Source: Mustelus asterias (lineage: Eukaryota). From it: 64,000 bases of DNA. Positions 4,455-40,850 of the stretch are shown one piece after another. The position numbers and the translations under genes were made by a program. Every line of letters begins with the position of its first letter. The first letter of the stretch is position 1. The DNA is taken from contig NC_135808.1 in NCBI RefSeq assembly GCF_964213995.1, forward strand, positions 50,902,001 through 50,966,000, given 5' to 3'. The notes under the pieces were generated by a model. The model had not been told where the DNA came from, made no database searches, and worked only from the letters and a program-made list of their open reading frames with translations.

Positions 4455-5190
4455 TCGGGGGAACCTTTTGAACCAGTACGGAACAATCCCAACAAGAGAA
4501 GGGGCAGTTTTGGACAGTTTTATAGGCATGTGGAAGGTGTATCAGTGGGTGAGCATTTGGGTAATAGTGATCATAATACAGTTAGATTGGGAGTAGTTTT
4601 GGGAGAAGGGAAAGATTGATCAAGAGTATAAGTTTTAAATTGGGAAAAGGCCGATTTCACAAAACTGGGATTTGCCAAAATGGAGAGGAAACATCGACTT
4701 GAAGGTAAATCAGTGTCAGAGCAGTGGGAGGATATTCGAGCTGGAGATAGAGTTCAGAACAAATATGTTCACACAAAGCAATAGCGTGGGACATTGCAAG
4801 GAGGATAACTAAGGAATGAATAGGGCAGGTTAGAGAGCAACAAGGTAACTTGTGTGCAGAGGGGGAAGGCACAGAGATGGTTCTTAATGAATAATTTACA
4901 TCAGATATCACAAATGAGAGGGACAAAGCTGACATTGTAGTTCAGGAGGAGAGGGATTGTGAAATAATTAATGGGATAATGATAGTGTGGGAGGAGGTAT
5001 TAATGTGTTTATCATCTTTGAAAGTGGAAAAATTCCCAGGCCCGGGTGAAATGTATCCCAGGATGCGAAGGGAAGCACGGGAAGAAATAGCAGAGACTCT
5101 GACCATTATTTCCCAATCCTCTCTGGCTACAGGTGTGGTGTGGGAGGACTGGAGGACGGATAATGCTGTACCATTGTTTAAAATTAAAAG
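4455..5190 (+). mobile_element. Old degraded CR1 fragment
   Basis: HLGNSDHN and KFPGPGEMYPR remnants; inverted paralogue at ~60375-60665. Confidence 0.75.
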
Positions 5191-19580: not shown

Positions 19581-19608
19581 GGTTTTTGTAAGGCTCTGTA
19601 TCACTGTG
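19581..19608 (-). other. V recombination signal sequence, 12-bp spacer
   Basis: CACAGTG (19608-19602), 12-nt spacer, ACAAAAACC (19589-19581); perfect consensus, kappa-type V12/J23 arrangement. Confidence 0.97.
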
Positions 19609-19907
19609 TAGAGGGTAGTTTTCACCTTGCTGACAGTAATAATCAGCGACATCCTCATTCTGTACATTGCTGATTTTTAGGGTGAAACTTGTCCCAGATT
19701 GACTCCCGCTGAATCGGTCGGATATTCCTGTGAATCGTGTTGATGCACGATAAATCAGCAGAGCCGGTTTCTGTCCTTCTCGCTGTTGGTACCAATTCAC
19801 GTAACTGCTAACAGATTGACTGGCCGTACAGGTGATGGTGGCGGTCTGCCCCAGGCTCACTGACAGCACCGGGGGAGACTGGGTCATGATGCTGTCTCCA
19901 TTGATAC
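19609..19907 (-). CDS. IGKV: Ig light-chain V exon, kappa / type III (NS4-like)
   Basis: AG acceptor at 19908-19909; [53 protein letters not shown]...[36 protein letters not shown], open frame with conserved Cys, Trp and YYC. Confidence 0.97.
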
Positions 19908-20093
19908 CTGAGGGGTAATAGAGAAACAGAGTGAAGTAAGAACTGTCACAGAAAGACGCTGTACAATGAGATATTGTTGGAGACACTGACTGTTCCTCTC
20001 CTTTCAGCATTTTCCCTTCAATCACAAGTCAGGAGAATTGGATTGAAATGGAGAGCAGGAAAATATTCAAGGTGGAAGGAGAGAGATTTGTAC

Positions 20094-20142
20094 CTGCGAT
20101 GCAGAATGCCAGAGGCCAGAGCAGCTGGATGGCTGAAATCAT
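20094..20142 (-). CDS. IGKV: Ig V leader exon (MISAIQLLWPLAFCIA-G)
   Basis: ACCATG Kozak context; hydrophobic signal peptide; 49 nt, phase 1; GT donor at 20093-20092; 186-nt intron. Confidence 0.92.
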
Positions 20143-20281: not shown

Positions 20282-21307
20282 GCACCTTTCACTTCCTCTT
20301 CTTCTCTCTCCCTCCCTCAGTCTCTGTCCCTCAGTCTCTGTCCCTCAGTCTCTGTCCCTCAGACTGTTTCCTCAGTGTCTGTCTCTCTCACTCTATTGAT
20401 ATCTCTCCCTCACTCACTGTCCCTTTCACTCTCTGAGTAACTGCCCATTATTTTTTTAAATGAAAGCTACTTGCCTGGGGGGAGTGTTCTCATTGTTCAC
20501 CCGGAGCAAGGCTGAGAGGAGCGATTTGTGATACAGTAAAAAGGGTAAGGGAATAACTTTATTTTCATTACTTTATCACGGGGTTTCTTTTTTACCAGTT
20601 TTAGGCAAAAAGCGGAAGTAGGCCGGGCGCGGGGTGACCTGGGAAAAAACATTTTTTAAGCGCGCGGGAGGTTTAAGAAGCAGGCCACACTATCCAGCGG
20701 GCAGCGTTGTAGCGGGCAGCGGAGTGAGAGCTAAAGGGCTTTGGCTCATCGGGCTTAGGCGGAAACAGGCGAGGCAGGTAGGGTTATTTCTTAGTTTGTA
20801 ATAACTTAAACTAGGTAATTATGATGGAGGGTCATGTGATGTGTTGTTTCTGCATGATGTGGGAGCTGGTGGACCCCACTGTGATTCCCAGTGAGCATGT
20901 CTGCAGTAAGTGTTAGTTGCTTGAGGAACTCCGGCTCAGCGTTGATGAGCTGGATTCTGAGCTTCGGACACTGCGATATATCAGGCAGGGGGATAGTTAC
21001 CTGGACACTTTCAGGAGGCAGTCACAGCCCTTAGACTAACTAATTCAGCCGGGGGTCAGGGACAAGAGGGTGTGGCTGCGAGTGAGGCAGGAAGTGGGAT
21101 CCAGAAGGTAGAGTTGCAGGAGCCTCAGTCCCTGAATCTGTACAACAGGTTTGAGATTCTTGCTCCCAGTGTGGACGGGAACGGGGACTGCAAGGAGGAC
21201 GAGCAAACTGCCCATGGCACCGTGGTACAGGGAGCCGTTCAGATGGAGGAGGAAAAAAGAAATGTCGTGGTAATTGGGGATAGTATAGTTAGGGGCATTG
21301 ACACTAT

Positions 21308-21610
21308 CATAGGATTATAGAATCCCTGCGGTGCGGAGGGAGGCCATTCAGCCCATCGAGTTTGCACCGACCACAATCCCACCCAGGCCCTATTCCTGTA
21401 ACCCCACATATTTGCCCTGCTAGTCCCCCTGACACTAGGGGTAAATTTGGCATGGCCAATCAACCTAGCCTGCACAGTTTTGGACTGTGGAGGGAGTCCC
21501 ACACAGACACGGGGAGAGCGTGCGGGCGCCGCACAGACGGTAGCCCGAGGCCGGAGTTGAACCCGGGTCCCTGATGCTGTGAGGTAGCAGTGCTAACCAC
21601 TGTGCCACCT
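21308..21610 (-). mobile_element. HE1-like V-SINE with A-to-G changes on the plus strand
   Basis: Aligns to 39331-39668; about a dozen A>G differences. Confidence 0.85.
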
Positions 21611-22799
21611 TTTGAGGCCTTTTAACGGGCTTCAGCAGGGCTCATGCCAGCTTGGCCACCAGCAGTATTACAGTTCCCAGCCAGGGCCCGCTCATCCAAA
21701 GGAAGGCCTGCTTGTGGTCTTGTGCTGAAAGGTGTGTTTGAGTGGAACTGGGGACAGGATCAGCAGACACTGTCTAATAGCTCACCGTGATGAGATAGTA
21801 AATGGGTCAGAATCTGTGGAATCCTACGCCAATGTAGAACCAGAGAGAAAAGGGAAGAAAACTAGACAGTTTAAGAAAAAATAAAATCACTGACAGATTA
21901 CACTGTTCTTTGGTTTGAGTTGGCAAGAAGAAAAGTAAGTGGAAATTTCTGACCAGCACAATAAGCCAGTATGTAGAAAACTGCGCAACTGTGACTTAGC
22001 TTTAATTTTAATTCTGCATTCTGCACAAATAAGAATTTCTATGTTTATAACTTTCCACAAATCTAAATGGCAGCCTTAATCATGGAATTAAGAGAATTGA
22101 TAGGGATAAACGTGGAACTAGTCTAGAAATCTGATATGATCTCAATATTATTGGTTAGGTAATCCAGCCTAAACAAAGCCTATCCACTGAAAAATGCCTT
22201 TGAAGCTTTTTTTTGTCAAACTGACAGAAATAAGGCTGTTGAAGCAGAAGGCTCACTGTTAAGTTTTGAGAGCTGAAGGGACTAAATTCATAATTTATTA
22301 TACTGCACATTGGTTGGAGTTATTCATGGGACATTGCTCCAATGTCATGCTCAGGAAGCCCACCTCATTCCCAGAGCATGAAACCTGCTGAATTGGGAAG
22401 GTAGACGCAGTGGGTACCAAGGCTCAGGTTGTTGTTCCTGGGTTAGGTGCAGAGGCAGGAGAATTCCCAGCTCCACAAGCCCAACCTTTAAAAATGGCCT
22501 CCTGACCTGGTGTTTGGACCGGTGGGATGGGGGCTGGAATAGGAGTTAGGGGGTGACCGCAGAAGTAGTTAGGTAGGCCTGGTGTGGGTTGGACGACTCA
22601 GACACAGATAAAAAGCAGACCTTAAAAGTCCTATTTGAGAAGTAGGTCGTCCACGATGAAACCCCTGTGCCTCCGAGGGAATGTCGTTGCCTTGGCAAGG
22701 GAGTGTCAAAGTTATAAATGGTGTCCAACTGTTAGCCGATCCTGGAATGGATGGCCCATCATGGACTTTCCCAATGGAAGAATTGTCATTGTTGCTGCC

Positions 22800-23560
22800 T
22801 AATCAACTCTTCTGATCCACTGAAAGCATGGAGTGTGTTCTCAAGACACAGCCATGGAGGTGGCATTGTCTGGCCAATAGAGATATTTTGCAGTCATGTC
22901 GTTAGCTGCCAAGACTCAGTGGATGGATGAATGATGAACAGTGCCATGCTCATTATCCCATCCACTTGCCTTGTTGCCACTCATCTATCAGGATGTGTGT
23001 GCCCACATTGATGACCCTTGCCCAGGTCCCTCACAGCTGCACACTCTCATAGCATAACAGTGTGACTAAGATGGAGTAAACCAGGTTGTCAGTGGTCAGG
23101 GGGAACAACATGCTCCCTTGGAACCACAGCTACAGCTGATACGTCACCAAGCATTTGTGCAGAGCCATTCTTTCCACACACCATTGTCAGTAATCATTGA
23201 TGGCATGGTGAAAATGGTGAGTGCATATAAGCACACAAAAAGTGAATGAGAGAATGGCTCACCACCCTTTACACCTTACATTTTAATCATAGAGTTACAC
23301 ACAAAGGAGAAGTGATGTAAAGGGTGGGTCCAGCCACACCTCATGGACCAAGACCTTCAGTTTCAGGTGCAAAAAGTCCAGAAGAGCAGACCAGTCCTTC
23401 ACCCTGCTGGCCTTCACAATTCCCCTGTAGCAAACTAGAAGCTTATGTTCAAACAGCAGCTGTGCTGAGCACAGCAGGAGAGCTTCAGCACTCATGGATT
23501 CAGTGCAGGAAAAAATTCAATGACCTGCTGTGTTCCAGCAAGGTAAGTAGCCTGGCTCAT
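22800..23560. mobile_element. Degraded Harbinger-like DNA transposon relic
   Basis: Plus-strand Myb/SANT-like HSWIQCRKKFNDLL (~23489-23530) followed by a GTAAGT donor; faint transposase-like remnants on the minus strand ~22980-23175. Confidence 0.45.
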
Positions 23561-23786
23561 CCACACAGAACTCCAAGTGAAGGATCATATCTGTGTGCTC
23601 CAGCTAAGGTGTGAGACATGGCACTTACCTCTGCTTTAGTATTGAGGTGTGTATGTATACACAGCTCACATAAATGCACACAGAACACATGTGAAGAAGC
23701 ACTGTGAAGCACCGCTACAGTGAAGAGCAATATCACTCTATGTCCTATATATCAGGCTAACGTAAATTCATGCTGTCATTGTATAA

Positions 23787-24088
23787 GTTTATTTATCAGT
23801 GTCACAAGTAGGCTTACATTAACACTGCAATGAAATTACTGTGAAAACTCCCTAGTTGCCACACTCCGGCGCCAGTTTGGGTGCACTGAGGGAGAATTTA
23901 GCATGGCCAATGCACCTAACCAGCACATCTTTTGGACTGTGGGGGGAGGCCGGGGCACCCGGGGGAGGCCCGCGCGGGCGTGGGGGGAATGTGCGGACTC
24001 CGCGCGGACGGTGGCCCAGGCTGGGAATCGAGCCCGGGTCTCTGGCGCTGTGAGGCGGCAGTGCTAACCACTGTGCCACTGTGCTGCC
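23787..24088 (-). mobile_element. V-SINE, heavily A-to-G mutated on the plus strand
   Basis: Same subfamily tail as 14588-14882; about 22 A>G in 23940-24060. Confidence 0.9.
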
Positions 24089-24274
24089 TTTGCATTTCAA
24101 AATGGTGACAAACACTGCAGAGATGACCCCGACTGGGTGTCAGCGTGACTGCTACACATCCATCCTGTTAAACAGATGGGCATGGAGATTGCCAGCGTGC
24201 CTGAACAGCTGCCCATGATGATGGCCGTCTGCTGTGCCCACTACTTTGGCTGTGTTTGCATTCCATGTGTCACA

Positions 24275-25698
24275 GGATGTGGTCCCTATATTCAAGAAAG
24301 GGAACAGGGACAGCCCGGGAAATTACCGACCGGTGAGTCTAACCTCAGTGGTTGGTAAGTTGATGGAGAGGATCCTGAGAGACAGGATTTATGATCATCT
24401 AGAGAAGTTTAGTATGATCAAAAGTAGTCAGCAAGGCTTTGTCAGGGGCAGGTCGTGCCTTACGAGCCTGGTTGAGTTCTTTGAAAATGTGACCAAACAC
24501 ATTGACGAAGGAAGAGCGGTGGATGTGGTCTATATGGACTTCAGCAAGGCGTTCGATAAGGTCCCCCATGCAAGACTTCTTGAGAAAGTGAGAGGGCATG
24601 GGATCCAAGGGGCTGTTGCCTTGTGGATCCAGAACTGGCTTGCCTGCAGAAGGCAGAGAGTGGCTGTGGAGGGGTCTTTCTCTGCATGGAGGTCAGTGAC
24701 CAGTGGAGTGCCCCAGGGATCTGTTCTGGGACCCTTGCTGTTTGTCATTTTCATAAATGACCTGGATGAGGAAGTGGAGGGATGGGTTGGTAAGTTTGCT
24801 GACGACATCAAGGTAGGTGGTGTTGTGGATAGTTTGGAGGGATGTCAGAAGTTGCAGCGAGACATAGATAGAATGCAAGACTGGGCGGAGAAGTGGCAGA
24901 TGGACTTCAACCCGGATAAGTGTGTGGTGATCCATTTTGGCAGATCCAATGGGATGAAGCAGCAGTATAATATGAAGGGTACCATTCTTAGCAGTGTAGA
25001 GGATCAGAAGGACCTTGGGGTCCGGGTCCATAGGACTCTTAAATCGGCCTCGCAGGTGGAGGATGCGGTCAAGAAGGCGTACGGCGTACTGGCCTTCATT
25101 AATCGAGGGATTGAGTTTAGGAGTCGGGAGATAATGCTGCAGCTTTATAGGACCCTGGTTAGACCCCACTTGGAGTACTGCGCGCAGTTCTGGTCACCTC
25201 ATTACAGGAAAGATGTTGAAGCCATTGAAAGGGTGCAGAGGAGATTTGCAAGGATGTTGCCTGGATTGGGGGGCATGCCTTATGAGGATAGGTTGAGGGA
25301 GCTTGGTCTCTTCTCCCTGGAGAGACGAAGGATGAGAGGTGACCTGATAGAGGTTTACAAGATGTTGAGAGGTCTGGATAGGGTAGACTCTCAGAGGCTA
25401 TTTCCAAGGGCTGAAATGGTTGCTACGAGAGGACACAGGTTTAAGGTGCTGGGGGGTAGGTACAGAGGAGATGTCAGGGGTAAGTTTTTCACTCAGAGGG
25501 TGGTGGGTGAGTGGAATCGGCTGACGTCGGTGGTGGTGCAGGCAAACTCGTTGGGGTCTTTTAAGAGACTTCTGGATGAGTACATGGGATTTAATGGGAT
25601 TGAGGGCTATAGATAGGCCTAGAGGTGGGGATGTGATCGGCGCAACTTGTGGGCCGAAGGGCCTGTTTGTGCTGTGGCTTTCTATGTTCTATGTTCTA
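24275..25698 (+). mobile_element. CR1 LINE, 5'-truncated, intact ORF2 C-terminal frame
   Basis: ORF 24234-25616 RT motifs; (TTCTATG)n tail. Confidence 0.95.
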
Positions 25699-26114
25699 TG
25701 ACACTGTTCTTCTGTGACCAGGATCGAGAATCCCGAAGGTTGTATTGCCTGCCTGGTGCTCCTGTCCAGGATATCTCATCTGGGCTGCAGAGGAACTTGG
25801 AGTGGGAGGGTAAGAACCCAGTTGTAGTGGTCCACGTAGGTACCAATGACATAGGCAGAACAGGAACAGAGGTTCTGCAGAGGGAGTATGAAAAGCTAGG
25901 AGCCAAACGAAAAAGCAGAACCAACAAGGTAGTGATCTCTGGATTACTACCTGAGCCACAAGCAAATTGGCGCAGGGTCAATAAGATTAAGGAGGCAAAT
26001 GTGTGGCTGAAAGATTGGTGCGGGCGGAATGGGTTTGAATTCATGAGACATTGGCACCAGTATTGGGGAAGATGGGCCCTGTTCCGATGGGATGGTCTTC
26101 ATCTGAATCATGTT

Positions 26115-27748
26115 GGGATTCTGTTACTAAAGAGGTAGTGCTTGGTAGGCTAATGGGACTAAAGATAGACAAGTCCCCAGGCCCGGATGGAATGCATCCC
26201 AGGGTACTGAAAGAAATGGCAGAAGTAATGGCAGATGCGTTAGTTGTAGTTTATCAAAATTCGCTGGACTCTGGGGTAGTGCCGGCTGATTAGAAAGCAG
26301 CTAATGTGACGCCACTGTTCAAAAAAGGAGGTAGACAAAAGGCGGGTAACTACAGGCCGGTTAGCTTAACGTCCGTAGTTGGGAAATTGCTGGAATCCAT
26401 CATTAAAGAAGAAATAGCAGGACACCTGGAGAAAAATGGTTCGATCAAACAGACGCAGCATGGATTCATGAAAGGAAAGTCGTGTTTGACGAATTTACTG
26501 GATTTTTATGAAGATGTAACAAGTGCAGTTGACAGAGGGGAACTAGTGGATGTGGTGTATTTAGATTTCCAGAAGGCGTTCGATAAGGTGCCTCACAAAA
26601 GGTTGCTGCAGAAGATTAGGGTACACGGAGTTGGGGGTAAAGTGTTAGCGTGGATTGAGGATTGGCTATCTAACAGGAAGCAGAGCGTCGGAATAAATGG
26701 GTGCTTTTCTGGTTGGCAGTTGGTGACCAGTGGCGTGCCGCAGGGATCAGTGCTGGGGCCTCAACTGTTCACCACATACATAGACGATCTGGAGGAGGGG
26801 ACCGAGTGTAGGCTAACAAAGTTTGCGCATGACACAAAGATGAGTGGGAAAGTGAATTGCATGGAGGATGCGGAAAGTCTGCAGAGCGATTTGGATAGGC
26901 TAAGTGAGTGGGTGAGGATCTGGCAGATGGAGTATAACGTTGGTAATTGTGAGGTTATCCACTTTGGAAGGAATAATAGTAAAATGGACTATTATTTAAA
27001 TGGTGAAAAATTACAACGTGCTACTGTGCAGAGGGACCTGGGGGTCCTTGTGCATGAATCACAAAAACTCAGTTTGCAGGTGCAGCAGGTGATCAAGAAG
27101 ACAAATGGAATGTTGGCCTTTATCGCGAAGGTGATGGAGTATAAAAGCAGGGAGGTCTTGCTGCAACTGTACAGGGTACTGGTGAGGCCGCAACTGGAGT
27201 ACTGTGTGCAATTTTGGTCCCCTTATTTGCGGAAGGATATATTGGCCTTGGAGGGGATACAGAGAAGGTTCACCAGGTTGATACCGGAGATGAGGGGATT
27301 AGCTTATGAGGAGAGATTGAGTAGATTGGGCCTGTACTCGTTGGAGTTTAGAAGGCTGAGGGGAGATCTTATAGAGACATATAAGATAATGAAGGGGCTG
27401 GACAGGGTAGAGGCAGAGAGATTCTTTCCACTGAGAAAGGAAACAAGAACTAGAGGACACAGCCTCAAAATAAGGGGGAGTCAGTTTGGAACAGAGTTGA
27501 GGAGGAACTTCTTCTCTCAGAGGGGAGTGAATCTCTGGAATTCTCTGCCCATTGAAGCAGTGGAGGCTACCTCGTTAAATATGTTTAAGTCACATGTCGA
27601 TAGATTTCTGATCAATAAGGGAATTAAGGGGAGCGGGCGGGTAAGTGGAACGAAACCACTATCAGATCAGCCATGATCTTATTGAATGGAGGGGCAGACT
27701 CGAGGGGCTAGATGGCCTACTCCTGCTCCTATTTCTTATGTTCTTATA
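26115..27748 (+). mobile_element. CR1 LINE (different subfamily), 5'-truncated
   Basis: ORF 26306-27676 RT; TTCTTATG tail. Confidence 0.93.
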
Positions 27749-38909: not shown

Positions 38910-40850
38910 TTTGGCAGGGGGATGGGTTACACTGTAGATGTAAGGTTGGGAGTGAGGTTCAGTCAGATATAGAAGGAAAACTCAGTCAGTCCAGCAGGCA
39001 GAGAAGACTTGGGCATGATGAGGCACAAGGGAGGATTTGAAGGCTAAACTGCATCTATTTTAATACAAGGAGCCTGTCTGGTCAGGCAGATGAACTTAGA
39101 GAGTTGGTCAGCACGTGGAAATATGAGATTGTTGCAGTCACTGAGACATGGTTGAAAGAAGGGCAGGACTGGCAACTCGACACTCCAGGGTACAGAAGTT
39201 CCAGGCGTGATGGGGGTCGGGGGGTGGGGGGGTATGTAAGAGAGGAGGGGACATTGTTTTATTGATTAAAGAGACCAAGCCTGCAGTAATGAGGGAGGAT
39301 GTATTGGAACGCTCTTCAAATGAGGCCATATAGATCATAGAAACCCTACAGTGCAGAAGGAGGCCATTCGGCCCATCGAGTCTGCACCGACCACAATCCC
39401 ACCCAGGCCTTATCCCCATAACCCCACATATTTATCCGCTAATCCCTCTAACCTACGCATCCCAGGATACTAAGGGGCAATTTAGCATGGTCAATGCACC
39501 TAACCTGCACATCTTTGGACTGTGGGAGGAAACTGGAGCACCCGGAGGAAACCCACGCAGACACGGGGAGAATGTGCAAACACCACACAGACAGTGACCC
39601 AAGCCGGGAATCGAACCCAGATCCCTGGAGCTGTGAAGCAGCAGTGCTAACCACTGTGCCACTGTGACGCCGCATATGGGTGGAGCTGAGAAATATAAAG
39701 GGCGATCATTGTGCTGGGATTATACTACAGGCCTCCCAACACTCAGAGGGAGATGGAGGAGCAGATATGTAGCAAATCACAGAGAGAGATGTGAGAGGAA
39801 TAGGTCTGTGGTCGTCGGGGATTTCAACCTCACCAATATTAATGGAATCACCTCAGTGTGAAAGGATTAGACAGGGTGGAATTTTTGAAGTGATTCCAGG
39901 AGAGCTTTCTGTGTCAGTAGATAGATAATCCAACTTGGGATGGCCCGTGCTCGACCTAATCCTCCGGAATGAAGCCGGGCAAGTTGTTGAAGTGTCAGTG
40001 GGTGAGCATTTTGGGGATGGGGAAGGTGGACAAAGCAACGAAAGATGGAATTTAATCCTGATAAGTGTGAGGTGATGCATTTTGGGAGATTTAATAAAGG
40101 TTGGATATACACAATGAACGGTAGGTCCCGAGGGAGAATTGAGGAACAAAGGAACCTTGGTGTACAAGTCCATGGATCCCTGAAGGTGGCAGCACAGGGC
40201 GATAGTGTGGTGAAGAAGGCAATTGGAATGCTTGCCTTCATTAGTCAGGGTTCGAATATGGGAGGAGGGAGGTCTTGGTACAACTTTATAAAACATTGGT
40301 TAGACCACAGATGGAATATTGTGCGCAGTTCTGGTCACCACACTATCGGAAGGATGTGATTGCACTGGCGAGGGTGCAGAGGAGAATCACCGGGATGTTG
40401 CCTGGGATGGAACGTTTCAGCTATGAGGAGAGACTGGACAGACTGGATTTGTTTTCCCTGGAGCAGAGGAGGCTGAGAGGGGATCTGATAGAGGTTTACA
40501 AAATTATGAGAGGTGTTGATAGGATGGATCGTAAGAGACTTTTCCCCATGGCACAGGTGTCTAAGAGGAGAGGGCATAGGTTTAAGGTGAGAAGGAAGTG
40601 GTTTAGAGGAGATCTGAGAAAGAATTTTTCACCCAGAGGGTGGTGGAAATATGGAACGCGCTGCCTGAGAGGGTGGTGGAGGCAGGAACTCTCGCTACAT
40701 TTAAGAAGCATCTGGACAAGCACTTCAATCACCAAGGCACAGTAACTATGGACCAAGTGCTGGTAAATGGGATTAGTATAGATTGGTATTGGATGGTCAG
40801 CATAGACATGGTGGGCCGAAGGGCCTGTTTCTGTGCTGTGTGACTGTATG
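38910..40850 (+). mobile_element. CR1 LINE with large internal deletion
   Basis: Endonuclease N-terminus (CIYFNTRS...VAVTETWL), jump at ~40022 to the RT C-terminus, 3' tail at ~40815-40850. Confidence 0.85.
39331..39668 (-). mobile_element. HE1-like V-SINE, full length
   Basis: tRNA head, V core, CR1-type tail with TCTATGA repeats. Confidence 0.92.

Follow-up and report, generated by a model that had tools for sequence, protein, structure and literature searches.

The window, meaning the whole 64,000-nucleotide stretch analysed (G000:C8:50902001-50966000, in a 3.68-Gb genome), contains a 4.4-kb insertion at 21306–25698 that is bounded by a 7-bp target-site duplication and consists of a 2976-nt copy of a locus on C10, fused, at 6 nt of microhomology, to the 3′-terminal 1.4 kb of a very young CR1 LINE. 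Two SINEs within the copied segment carry dense A-to-G changes, and we consider it very probable that they record a host RNA that was hyper-edited by ADAR and then written into DNA by a CR1 reverse transcriptase. A first-pass annotation had explained the denser of the two clusters as ADAR hyper-editing of a host transcript that runs antisense to the SINE, a reading now supported by an unedited parent, a 3-kb host segment and an inverted partner that pairs, in prediction, with the edited part. The insertion and its target are composed as follows, in window coordinates.

20485–21305, plus strand: older CR1-type LINE (5′ part) that served as target and was split by the insertion (40 genome copies at 84–93%)
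21299–21305, plus strand: left target-site duplication TGACACT, identical to 25699–25705
21306–24281, plus strand (the presumed RNA sense): captured host segment of 2976 nt, a colinear copy of G000:C10:87202641-87199665 (minus strand)
21306–21609, minus strand (antisense on plus): SINE 1, the first edited SINE, with a tRNA-type head and a CR1-like tail whose end lies at the 5′ junction
21328–21556, plus strand: A>G cluster 1, 18 polarised changes (18/67 A between the first and last change)
21613–23784, plus strand: spacer between the two SINEs, ~99.3% identical to the C10 parent
23785–24090, minus strand (antisense on plus): SINE 2, of a second subfamily with a different 3′ body
23883–24057, plus strand: A>G cluster 2, the finding of the first-pass annotation, with 21 sites at all of which the parent and the majority of other copies have A (23883, 23944, 23948, 23949, 23954, 23963, 23967, 23968, 23972, 23976, 23978, 23980, 23986, 23995, 24004, 24006, 24010, 24014, 24019, 24032, 24057)
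24276–24281, plus strand: junction microhomology GATGTG, common to the host segment and CR1
24282–25698, plus strand: 5′-truncated, very young CR1 LINE with an open reverse transcriptase frame (Pfam RVT_1, E=1.9e-34) and 3′ UTR
25699–25705, plus strand: right copy of the target-site duplication, the first two letters of which overlap the CR1 tail repeat
25706–26135, plus strand: the older CR1 resumes in its ORF1 esterase region (Pfam Lipase_GDSL_2, E=2.2e-9; continuity in relatives)

The older CR1 is uninterrupted across the break point in 11/11 fetched relatives, where it continues into sequence matching the window from 25706 onward. The insertion itself has the anatomy of a template-switch chimera: a single target-site duplication encloses the host segment and CR1 together, a 5′-truncated LINE with an intact tail forms the 3′ end, and the host segment originates from a C10 locus at which no CR1 adjoins it, the match ending there at the GATGTG junction and giving way to unrelated, non-CR1 sequence. 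The same six letters precede the junction position in 9/11 young CR1 copies, and the tail is formed by three TTCTATG repeats (25680–25700) that recur in young copies. Because the CR1 part is 98.9–99.6% identical to ten copies (96.8% to an eleventh), it is young as judged by sequence identity; its 4 differences from the majority of copies are each found in at least one copy. The recent insertion proposed in the first pass is supported, but the unit that inserted was not a SINE; it was a chimeric retrocopy holding both edited SINEs. The changes read A>G on the plus strand, which is also the sense strand of CR1, and going by this strand host RNA and CR1 RNA may have shared one transcriptional orientation.

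The C10 parent was recognised via a genome match (L014) that has both flanks in common with the window. Window 21306–24281 and the parent are 96.3% identical over 2984 columns, with 94 substitutions and 2 gaps, and no other close copy of the unit appeared in any of three part-searches, each of which scored its best 40 candidates. When parent–copy differences are polarised with 299 alignments of other SINE copies, 39 A>G changes fall on the window side, 18 in SINE 1 (21306–21609) and 21 in SINE 2, and the parent has A at every one of these sites; two sites, 21525 and 23888, were excluded from the counts as unpolarised. Seven further apparent A>G differences at SINE sites were dropped as parent-side G>A, since other copies have G there, and those at 24227 and 24252 were not counted as edits, organism B having G at both. 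APOBEC editing of DNA was likewise considered and set aside, window-side G>A amounting to 0 in SINE 2 and 1–2 in SINE 1.

Compared with the parent, 20/33 A between 23940 and 24060 became G and 0/12 T became C, the one other change in this span being a C>T at a CpG (23981); a further A>G lies outside it at 23883. SINE 1 shows 18/82 A changed to G. The spectrum is one-way in both elements, with 21 A>G against 0 T>C in SINE 2 and 18 against 1 in SINE 1. At conserved A in other copies A>G has a background of 142/6144 (2.3%), against which 20/33 has a binomial P of ~1e-24, and among 42 copies of the SINE 2 subfamily the number of A>G relative to the majority is 0–6 in 40, 21 in the target and 17 in the remaining copy, L027. 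The parent’s own SINEs are unedited by the same measure (0 and 4 A>G). The change is thus dense, one-way, on a single strand and from ancestral A, as expected of ADAR. Older CpG are intact in 14/17 cases, and those newly made by the changes, which the first-pass annotation had called largely undecayed, are all intact (13/13).

That annotation had counted ~22 A>G with few other changes. The cluster is real, and against the comparator used then (39516–39660) we find 25 A>G and 6 other differences; the comparator, however, belongs to a different SINE subfamily with a different 3′ body, and the count against the true parent is 20. Two of the sequence comparisons cited at the time, CAAACT and CACACAGA, do contain A>G but were each overcounted by one, G at 23996 / 24002 being already present in the parent. 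A milder second cluster of ~12 changes had also been described; it exists at 21328–21556, with 18 polarised A>G.

The position of the changes follows the predicted pairing of the parent. A sense SINE lies in the parent at C10:87198277-87198606, 1.06 kb beyond the captured 3′ end, with others about +8.4 and +10.6 kb from the start of the unit. The parent’s sense SINE matches window 23881–24088 (83%) and 21314–21614 (77%), and when 1991 nt of the parent are folded in silico, the inverted SINE arms are predicted to pair. Inside the predicted long-range duplex 21/55 A are changed, outside it 0/27 (Fisher p=7.6e-5). The pairing partner has BLAST limits of 23881–24088 and the edits span 23883–24057; the 3′ body of SINE 2 (23785–23880) is without a partner in the predicted duplex and without A>G (0/28 A). 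An inverted SINE within 1.5 kb is common, being found for 18/47 SINE cores in the fetched stretches, and as such a neighbour is not rare, the weight of the argument rests on the match between the boundaries of edits and duplex. Judged by this modelled fold, the edits are confined to a duplex formed with a nearby inverted repeat.

The same boundaries bear on a twin-priming origin, in which an opposite-strand host RNA would be primed at the SINE 1 tail from a second nick and A>G would be made on the cDNA by ADAR or another deaminase. The 5′ junction lies 3 nt inside the end of the SINE 1 tail, a position that twin priming would give too; opposite-orientation, twin-primed snRNA/L1 chimeras are described in PMC4476161, and deamination of dA by ADAR in DNA:RNA hybrids is reported for model substrates in PMC12925331. 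A cDNA:RNA hybrid would cover the whole 3 kb, however, whereas the changes are limited to parts with an inverted partner and spare the unpaired SINE 2 body as well as the spacer, where 6/644 A differ. The left junction shows no complementarity to the target, two further edited copies at C22 and C9 (see below) end in a tail on the A>G strand, and the 5′ end lies within ~8 nt of the predicted duplex edge in the parent, which supplies a second possible reason for its position. We regard twin priming as very unlikely and prefer the copying of an RNA that was already edited.

The nucleotides adjoining the changed A carry a bias as well. A check of this kind, proposed in the first pass, gives a 3′ G preference for this insertion alone (16/35 against 23/101, p=0.016), together with a slight preference for 5′ A or T (19/48 against 20/88, p=0.048), while avoidance of 5′ G is not significant here (7/38 against 32/98, p=0.14) and emerges on pooling. 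Pooled over three events, in which homologous SINE positions repeat and sites are not independent, 5′ G is avoided (14/64 against 70/139, p=1.2e-4) and 3′ G favoured (33/56 against 51/147, p=0.002). These pooled sequence biases match the vertebrate ADAR motif of 5′ G avoidance and 3′ G preference given in PMC5625713, which also reports extensive hyper-editing in brain RNA of the elephant shark. The earlier observation that A after G is spared in GAAA holds in 4/4 cases, and the first A is spared in 13/13 instances of G followed by at least two A; the disfavour of a 5′ G seen in such runs is not absolute, since 6/14 A with a 5′ G are changed in the span 23940–24060.

Dense A>G could in principle also arise by error-prone synthesis of the polymerase eta type, as in antibody hypermutation, or by GC-biased gene conversion. 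Polymerase eta hypermutation concentrates A>G at WA. The insertion adjoins an immunoglobulin V gene (V-set 19588–19887, with a 12-bp-spacer signal) and has the slight 5′ A/T preference given above, both of which would suit such an origin; yet just 41/84 pooled changes are at WA, against 75/203 of the A available, and 29 are at CA. The insertion moreover lies upstream of the V leader, and no such neighbour is known for the C9 and C22 cases. GC-biased conversion predicts T>C as frequent as A>G, whereas 1 and 39 are observed. We consider both processes extremely improbable sources.

Similar copies occur elsewhere in the genome. A scan of the kind suggested in the first pass, with a pattern requiring four of the G, returned 6 places including the window and 0 for a reversed control, and each of the five other matches has a different set of G. 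A pattern for edits on the SINE sense strand gave 0 matches against these 6 antisense ones, a weak comparison in that the patterns differ. Descent from a GC-rich SINE subfamily having these G would account for five other loci matching the pattern, but they differ in the other changed A and belong to both SINE subfamilies. A multi-copy subfamily of this sort had been named in the first pass as the finding that would overturn its reading; the best other genome matches over the span reach 83–86%, and for the window copy, which has a parent with A and common flanks, shared descent of the G is refuted. The probability of this explanation is close to nil.

In six other loci, including L027 (the same locus as L117), we count 8–26 A>G and 0–2 T>C relative to the majority. 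L027 escaped the four-G pattern, and the true number of edited copies is therefore larger; as a rough estimate, there may be tens of them in the genome. Parents were sought for 4/6 other hyper-A>G copies, L114 and L116 being left out, and were found for two and not for the other two of the four searched. C9:65.155 Mb carries a 1.1-kb copy of C15:21.627 Mb. An inverted SINE pair within it has A>G on one and the same strand in both arms (19/34 and 7/38 A); the copy ends at the tail of the sense SINE, and no target duplication was seen around it. For the 2-kb copy at C22:30.966 Mb the parent is C5:29.663 Mb (96.6% identity over 1800 aligned nt); this copy comprises host flank, an antisense SINE in which 20/32 A are changed and, as far as its tail, a dead CR1. 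The copy is embedded in a SINE with a duplication of 5 bp, and its C5 parent has a 94% inverted SINE partner ~1.05 kb upstream. In both copies the terminal tail and the A>G changes share a strand, the edit sets are distinct and ordinary divergence from the parents amounts to a few percent.

The C22 copy (L115:4893) starts 16 nt from the predicted duplex edge in its parent; the C9 copy has its 5′ end ~200 nt from that edge, unlike the window and C22 copies. With distances of ~8 and 16 nt in 2/3 resolved cases, the edges of edited duplexes, as predicted, may set where copies begin. At its 5′ junction the C22 copy has 14 extra letters (L115:4879-4892), and ten of these match the adjacent target flank in reverse complement. 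The spacer of the C15 parent (L125/L126, G000:C15:21.627 Mb) holds a 143-bp CR1 3′ fragment that is missing from the C9 copy and was therefore inserted after copying or on another allele.

The most heavily changed copy seen is L114 (G000:C10:85.227 Mb), with 26 A>G in 190 nt; it abuts, to within a few letters, a 0.9-kb CR1 3′ end whose tail is on the same strand. Similarly, L112 abuts a CR1 3′ end with a same-strand tail, while the tail arrangement of L116 is ambiguous and L117 is without a tail downstream. Same-strand tails thus occur at 5/7 edited loci, in a genome in which such tails are dense. The hyper-A>G SINE of L117 (minus strand, ~4737-5123 on that strand; 17 changes) adjoins an inverted SINE and is flanked by imperfect direct repeats of ~35 bp; a search for a parent of its downstream flank found none.

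Ordinary divergence between the window copy and its parent is uneven. The spacer (21613–23784) differs by 16 substitutions, of which 6 are A>G (unpolarised) and 10 are not, in 2.2 kb, and non-A>G divergence is ~10x higher at both ends (21306–21609, 23885–24281). The non-edit differences of SINE 1 are 6 parent-private and 8–9 copy-side, those of SINE 2 are 13 parent-private against 1 copy-side, and those of the right flank, polarised by organism B, are 7 parent-side against 1 copy-side; in SINE 2 and the right flank together ordinary divergence is nearly all parent-side (20 against 2). A divergent template allele could explain this pattern, as could a later conversion event that took in the spacer and ended at the edited SINEs. 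The unevenness weakens dating and leaves the polarity of the 39 changes intact, because A is present in both the parent and the majority.

Run X3 has the window’s letters at 24097 and 24112, where the assembled C10 differs, and the C10 locus is therefore polymorphic. This polymorphism, and a template that differed from assembled C10 at many non-edit sites near both ends, are what an unassembled C10 allele would lead one to expect, on which the G might already have been present in DNA, for example by RNA-templated repair, and which a retrocopy merely duplicated. A contig of X1, X4 or X10 covering 23976–23980 at 85% likeness would be expected from such an allele and none does so; in addition, the explanation would require an unseen edited allele at each of three separate parents. 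We judge this explanation to have very little probability and hold to editing of the RNA before it was copied.

Across 24 public runs the best word share of the edited stretch is 0.49, equal to that of the C10 parent alone (0.47–0.52), shares under 0.2 not being counted as evidence. No contig of X1, X3, X4 or X10 among the matches listed bridges the 24281/24282 junction, a coverage gap that is not proof of absence, and the edited cluster is absent among the matches listed for X1, X3, X4, X10 and X23, one of these searches having been flooded by other SINE copies. Run X1 agrees with the parent at 23715 and at six positions of the right flank. Either the insertion is polymorphic, or it is specific to a species outside these runs, or it is not real; its retro-insertion anatomy disfavours the last.

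An assembly or polishing artefact, such as edited RNA reads or systematic base-calling error, would be in line with the failure to find the edited copy and junction in the public runs searched, and clusters of a single mismatch type have entered reference genomes, chiefly as G-to-A (PMC2873906). Against it, an error would not yield a 7-bp duplication, a tail, a microhomology junction and the clean split of an older CR1, nor does it fit with the unedited SINEs of the C10 parent or with the different edit sets and ordinary divergence of the C9 and C22 copies. We think such an error highly doubtful.

On the preferred reading, the C10 minus strand would have been transcribed as a long unspliced host RNA with two antisense SINEs and, 1.06 kb on, a sense SINE. 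The inverted SINEs are predicted to pair into long duplexes, in the paired parts of which ADAR would have converted 20–60% of A to inosine. A CR1 particle would have nicked the older CR1 on C8, primed on its own tail and copied 1.4 kb of CR1 RNA, after which the reverse transcriptase may have switched at GATGTG onto the edited host RNA and copied 2976 nt, reading inosine as G. Integration would then have left the TGACACT duplication, which is present at both ends. The event is presumably recent and may be polymorphic. The same route could have operated at C22 and C9, where the host RNA would have ended in its own CR1-type tail, so that no template switch was needed. A Pfam scan for host genes at C10 took in 60 kb and the 100 longest of its 298 unmasked frames, none of which had a match above the cut-off; weak matches to ELK and Fibrillarin fell below it and were set aside.

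If this is true, there is one concrete route from RNA editing to heritable sequence, and it would follow that ADAR hyper-edits RNA in the germ line or the early embryo of a cartilaginous fish. CR1 belongs to the LINEs considered strict as to their 3′ end, and it would here move kilobases of host RNA. A broader proposal, that CR1 reverse transcriptase in sharks has time and again copied ADAR-hyper-edited host RNAs into germ-line DNA and that tens of copy–parent pairs of differing age would make up a dated, single-molecule record of RNA editing in the germ line, seems to us evenly poised between right and wrong. We claim no function for the insertion.

The component processes are already known, namely RNA hyper-editing, LINE chimeras, APOBEC clusters and retroviral ADAR-type clusters. 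ADAR hyper-editing of inverted repeats in animal RNA, as described in PMC5625713, resembles our case in its dense one-way A>G, limited to duplexes of inverted repeats lying within ~2 kb, its avoidance of 5′ G and its preference for 3′ G; there RNA reads are compared with unedited DNA, whereas here the changes are fixed in genomic DNA beside an unedited parent. The U6/L1 template-switch chimeras of PMC4476161 likewise have a cellular RNA at the 5′ end, a 5′-truncated LINE with tail at the 3′ end and one duplication round both, and the same source reports such chimeras with L2 and RTE and one incompletely resolved CR1 case in turkey. The U6/L1 chimeras capture snRNA, in contrast to the 3 kb of unspliced, hyper-edited host sequence captured here with CR1. 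APOBEC-edited LTR retrotransposons (PMC4866542) are alike in being deaminase clusters in genomic copies that are read by comparison of copy, source and consensus, but those are G>A on the cDNA of LTR elements, whereas ours are A>G likely made on RNA and brought in by a non-LTR carrier; the filter of that survey selected for G-to-A and against A-to-G. In A-to-G hyper-edited Rous-associated virus, avian leukosis virus and HTLV-2 (PMC12925331), ADAR-type changes in an inverted-repeat region similarly came through reverse transcription, in that case of viral RNA in infected cells, whereas here host RNA, an insertion in a genome assembly and several loci are concerned.

Whether A-to-I edits reach heritable DNA has been argued mostly from statistics. 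A 2016 review treated the role of ADAR editing in Alu subfamily evolution as one then still to be determined (PMC4982230), and a 2023 paper (PMC10209271) set out contradictory accounts of how A/G variants arise in DNA at edited sites, one of which invokes reverse transcription of the edited RNA. The route described here makes new copies elsewhere and leaves the source unrewritten, and A/G variants at edited genes are therefore not explained by it alone. Our literature search, whose limited coverage makes a prior description possible, found no account of an ADAR-edited host RNA retrocopied into an animal genome together with its parent. What we add is a resolved chain of parent, partner, junction and duplication, and three separate events in which edited copy, unedited parent, pairing partner and enzyme footprint are found within one genome. 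Edited RNA has probably been copied back into DNA, and that DNA is itself probably heritable.

Some further features of the window lie beside or within the insertion. A minus-strand V gene of immunoglobulin light-chain type occupies 19588–20142, with a V-set domain at 19588–19887 (Pfam, E=6.5e-19), a 12-bp-spacer recombination signal at 19608 and a leader exon whose start, read by eye, is at ~20142; the insertion lies ~1.2 kb upstream of this leader. The SINE family may be HE1 / V-SINE of elasmobranchs; ARAGORN and Rfam applied to the SINE heads returned no tRNA or Rfam match. Window ~22420–23785 and 24095–24281 form an old dispersed repeat (69–79% to many copies) that is interrupted by SINE 2, and a short frame in it, which has no Pfam match, bears a possible resemblance to the Myb/SANT-like protein of Harbinger transposons. 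In the spacer, near 22017–22025, is a 7-bp tandem duplication that is absent from the C10 parent. Both of its units hold the same spacer A>G change, which therefore preceded the duplication.
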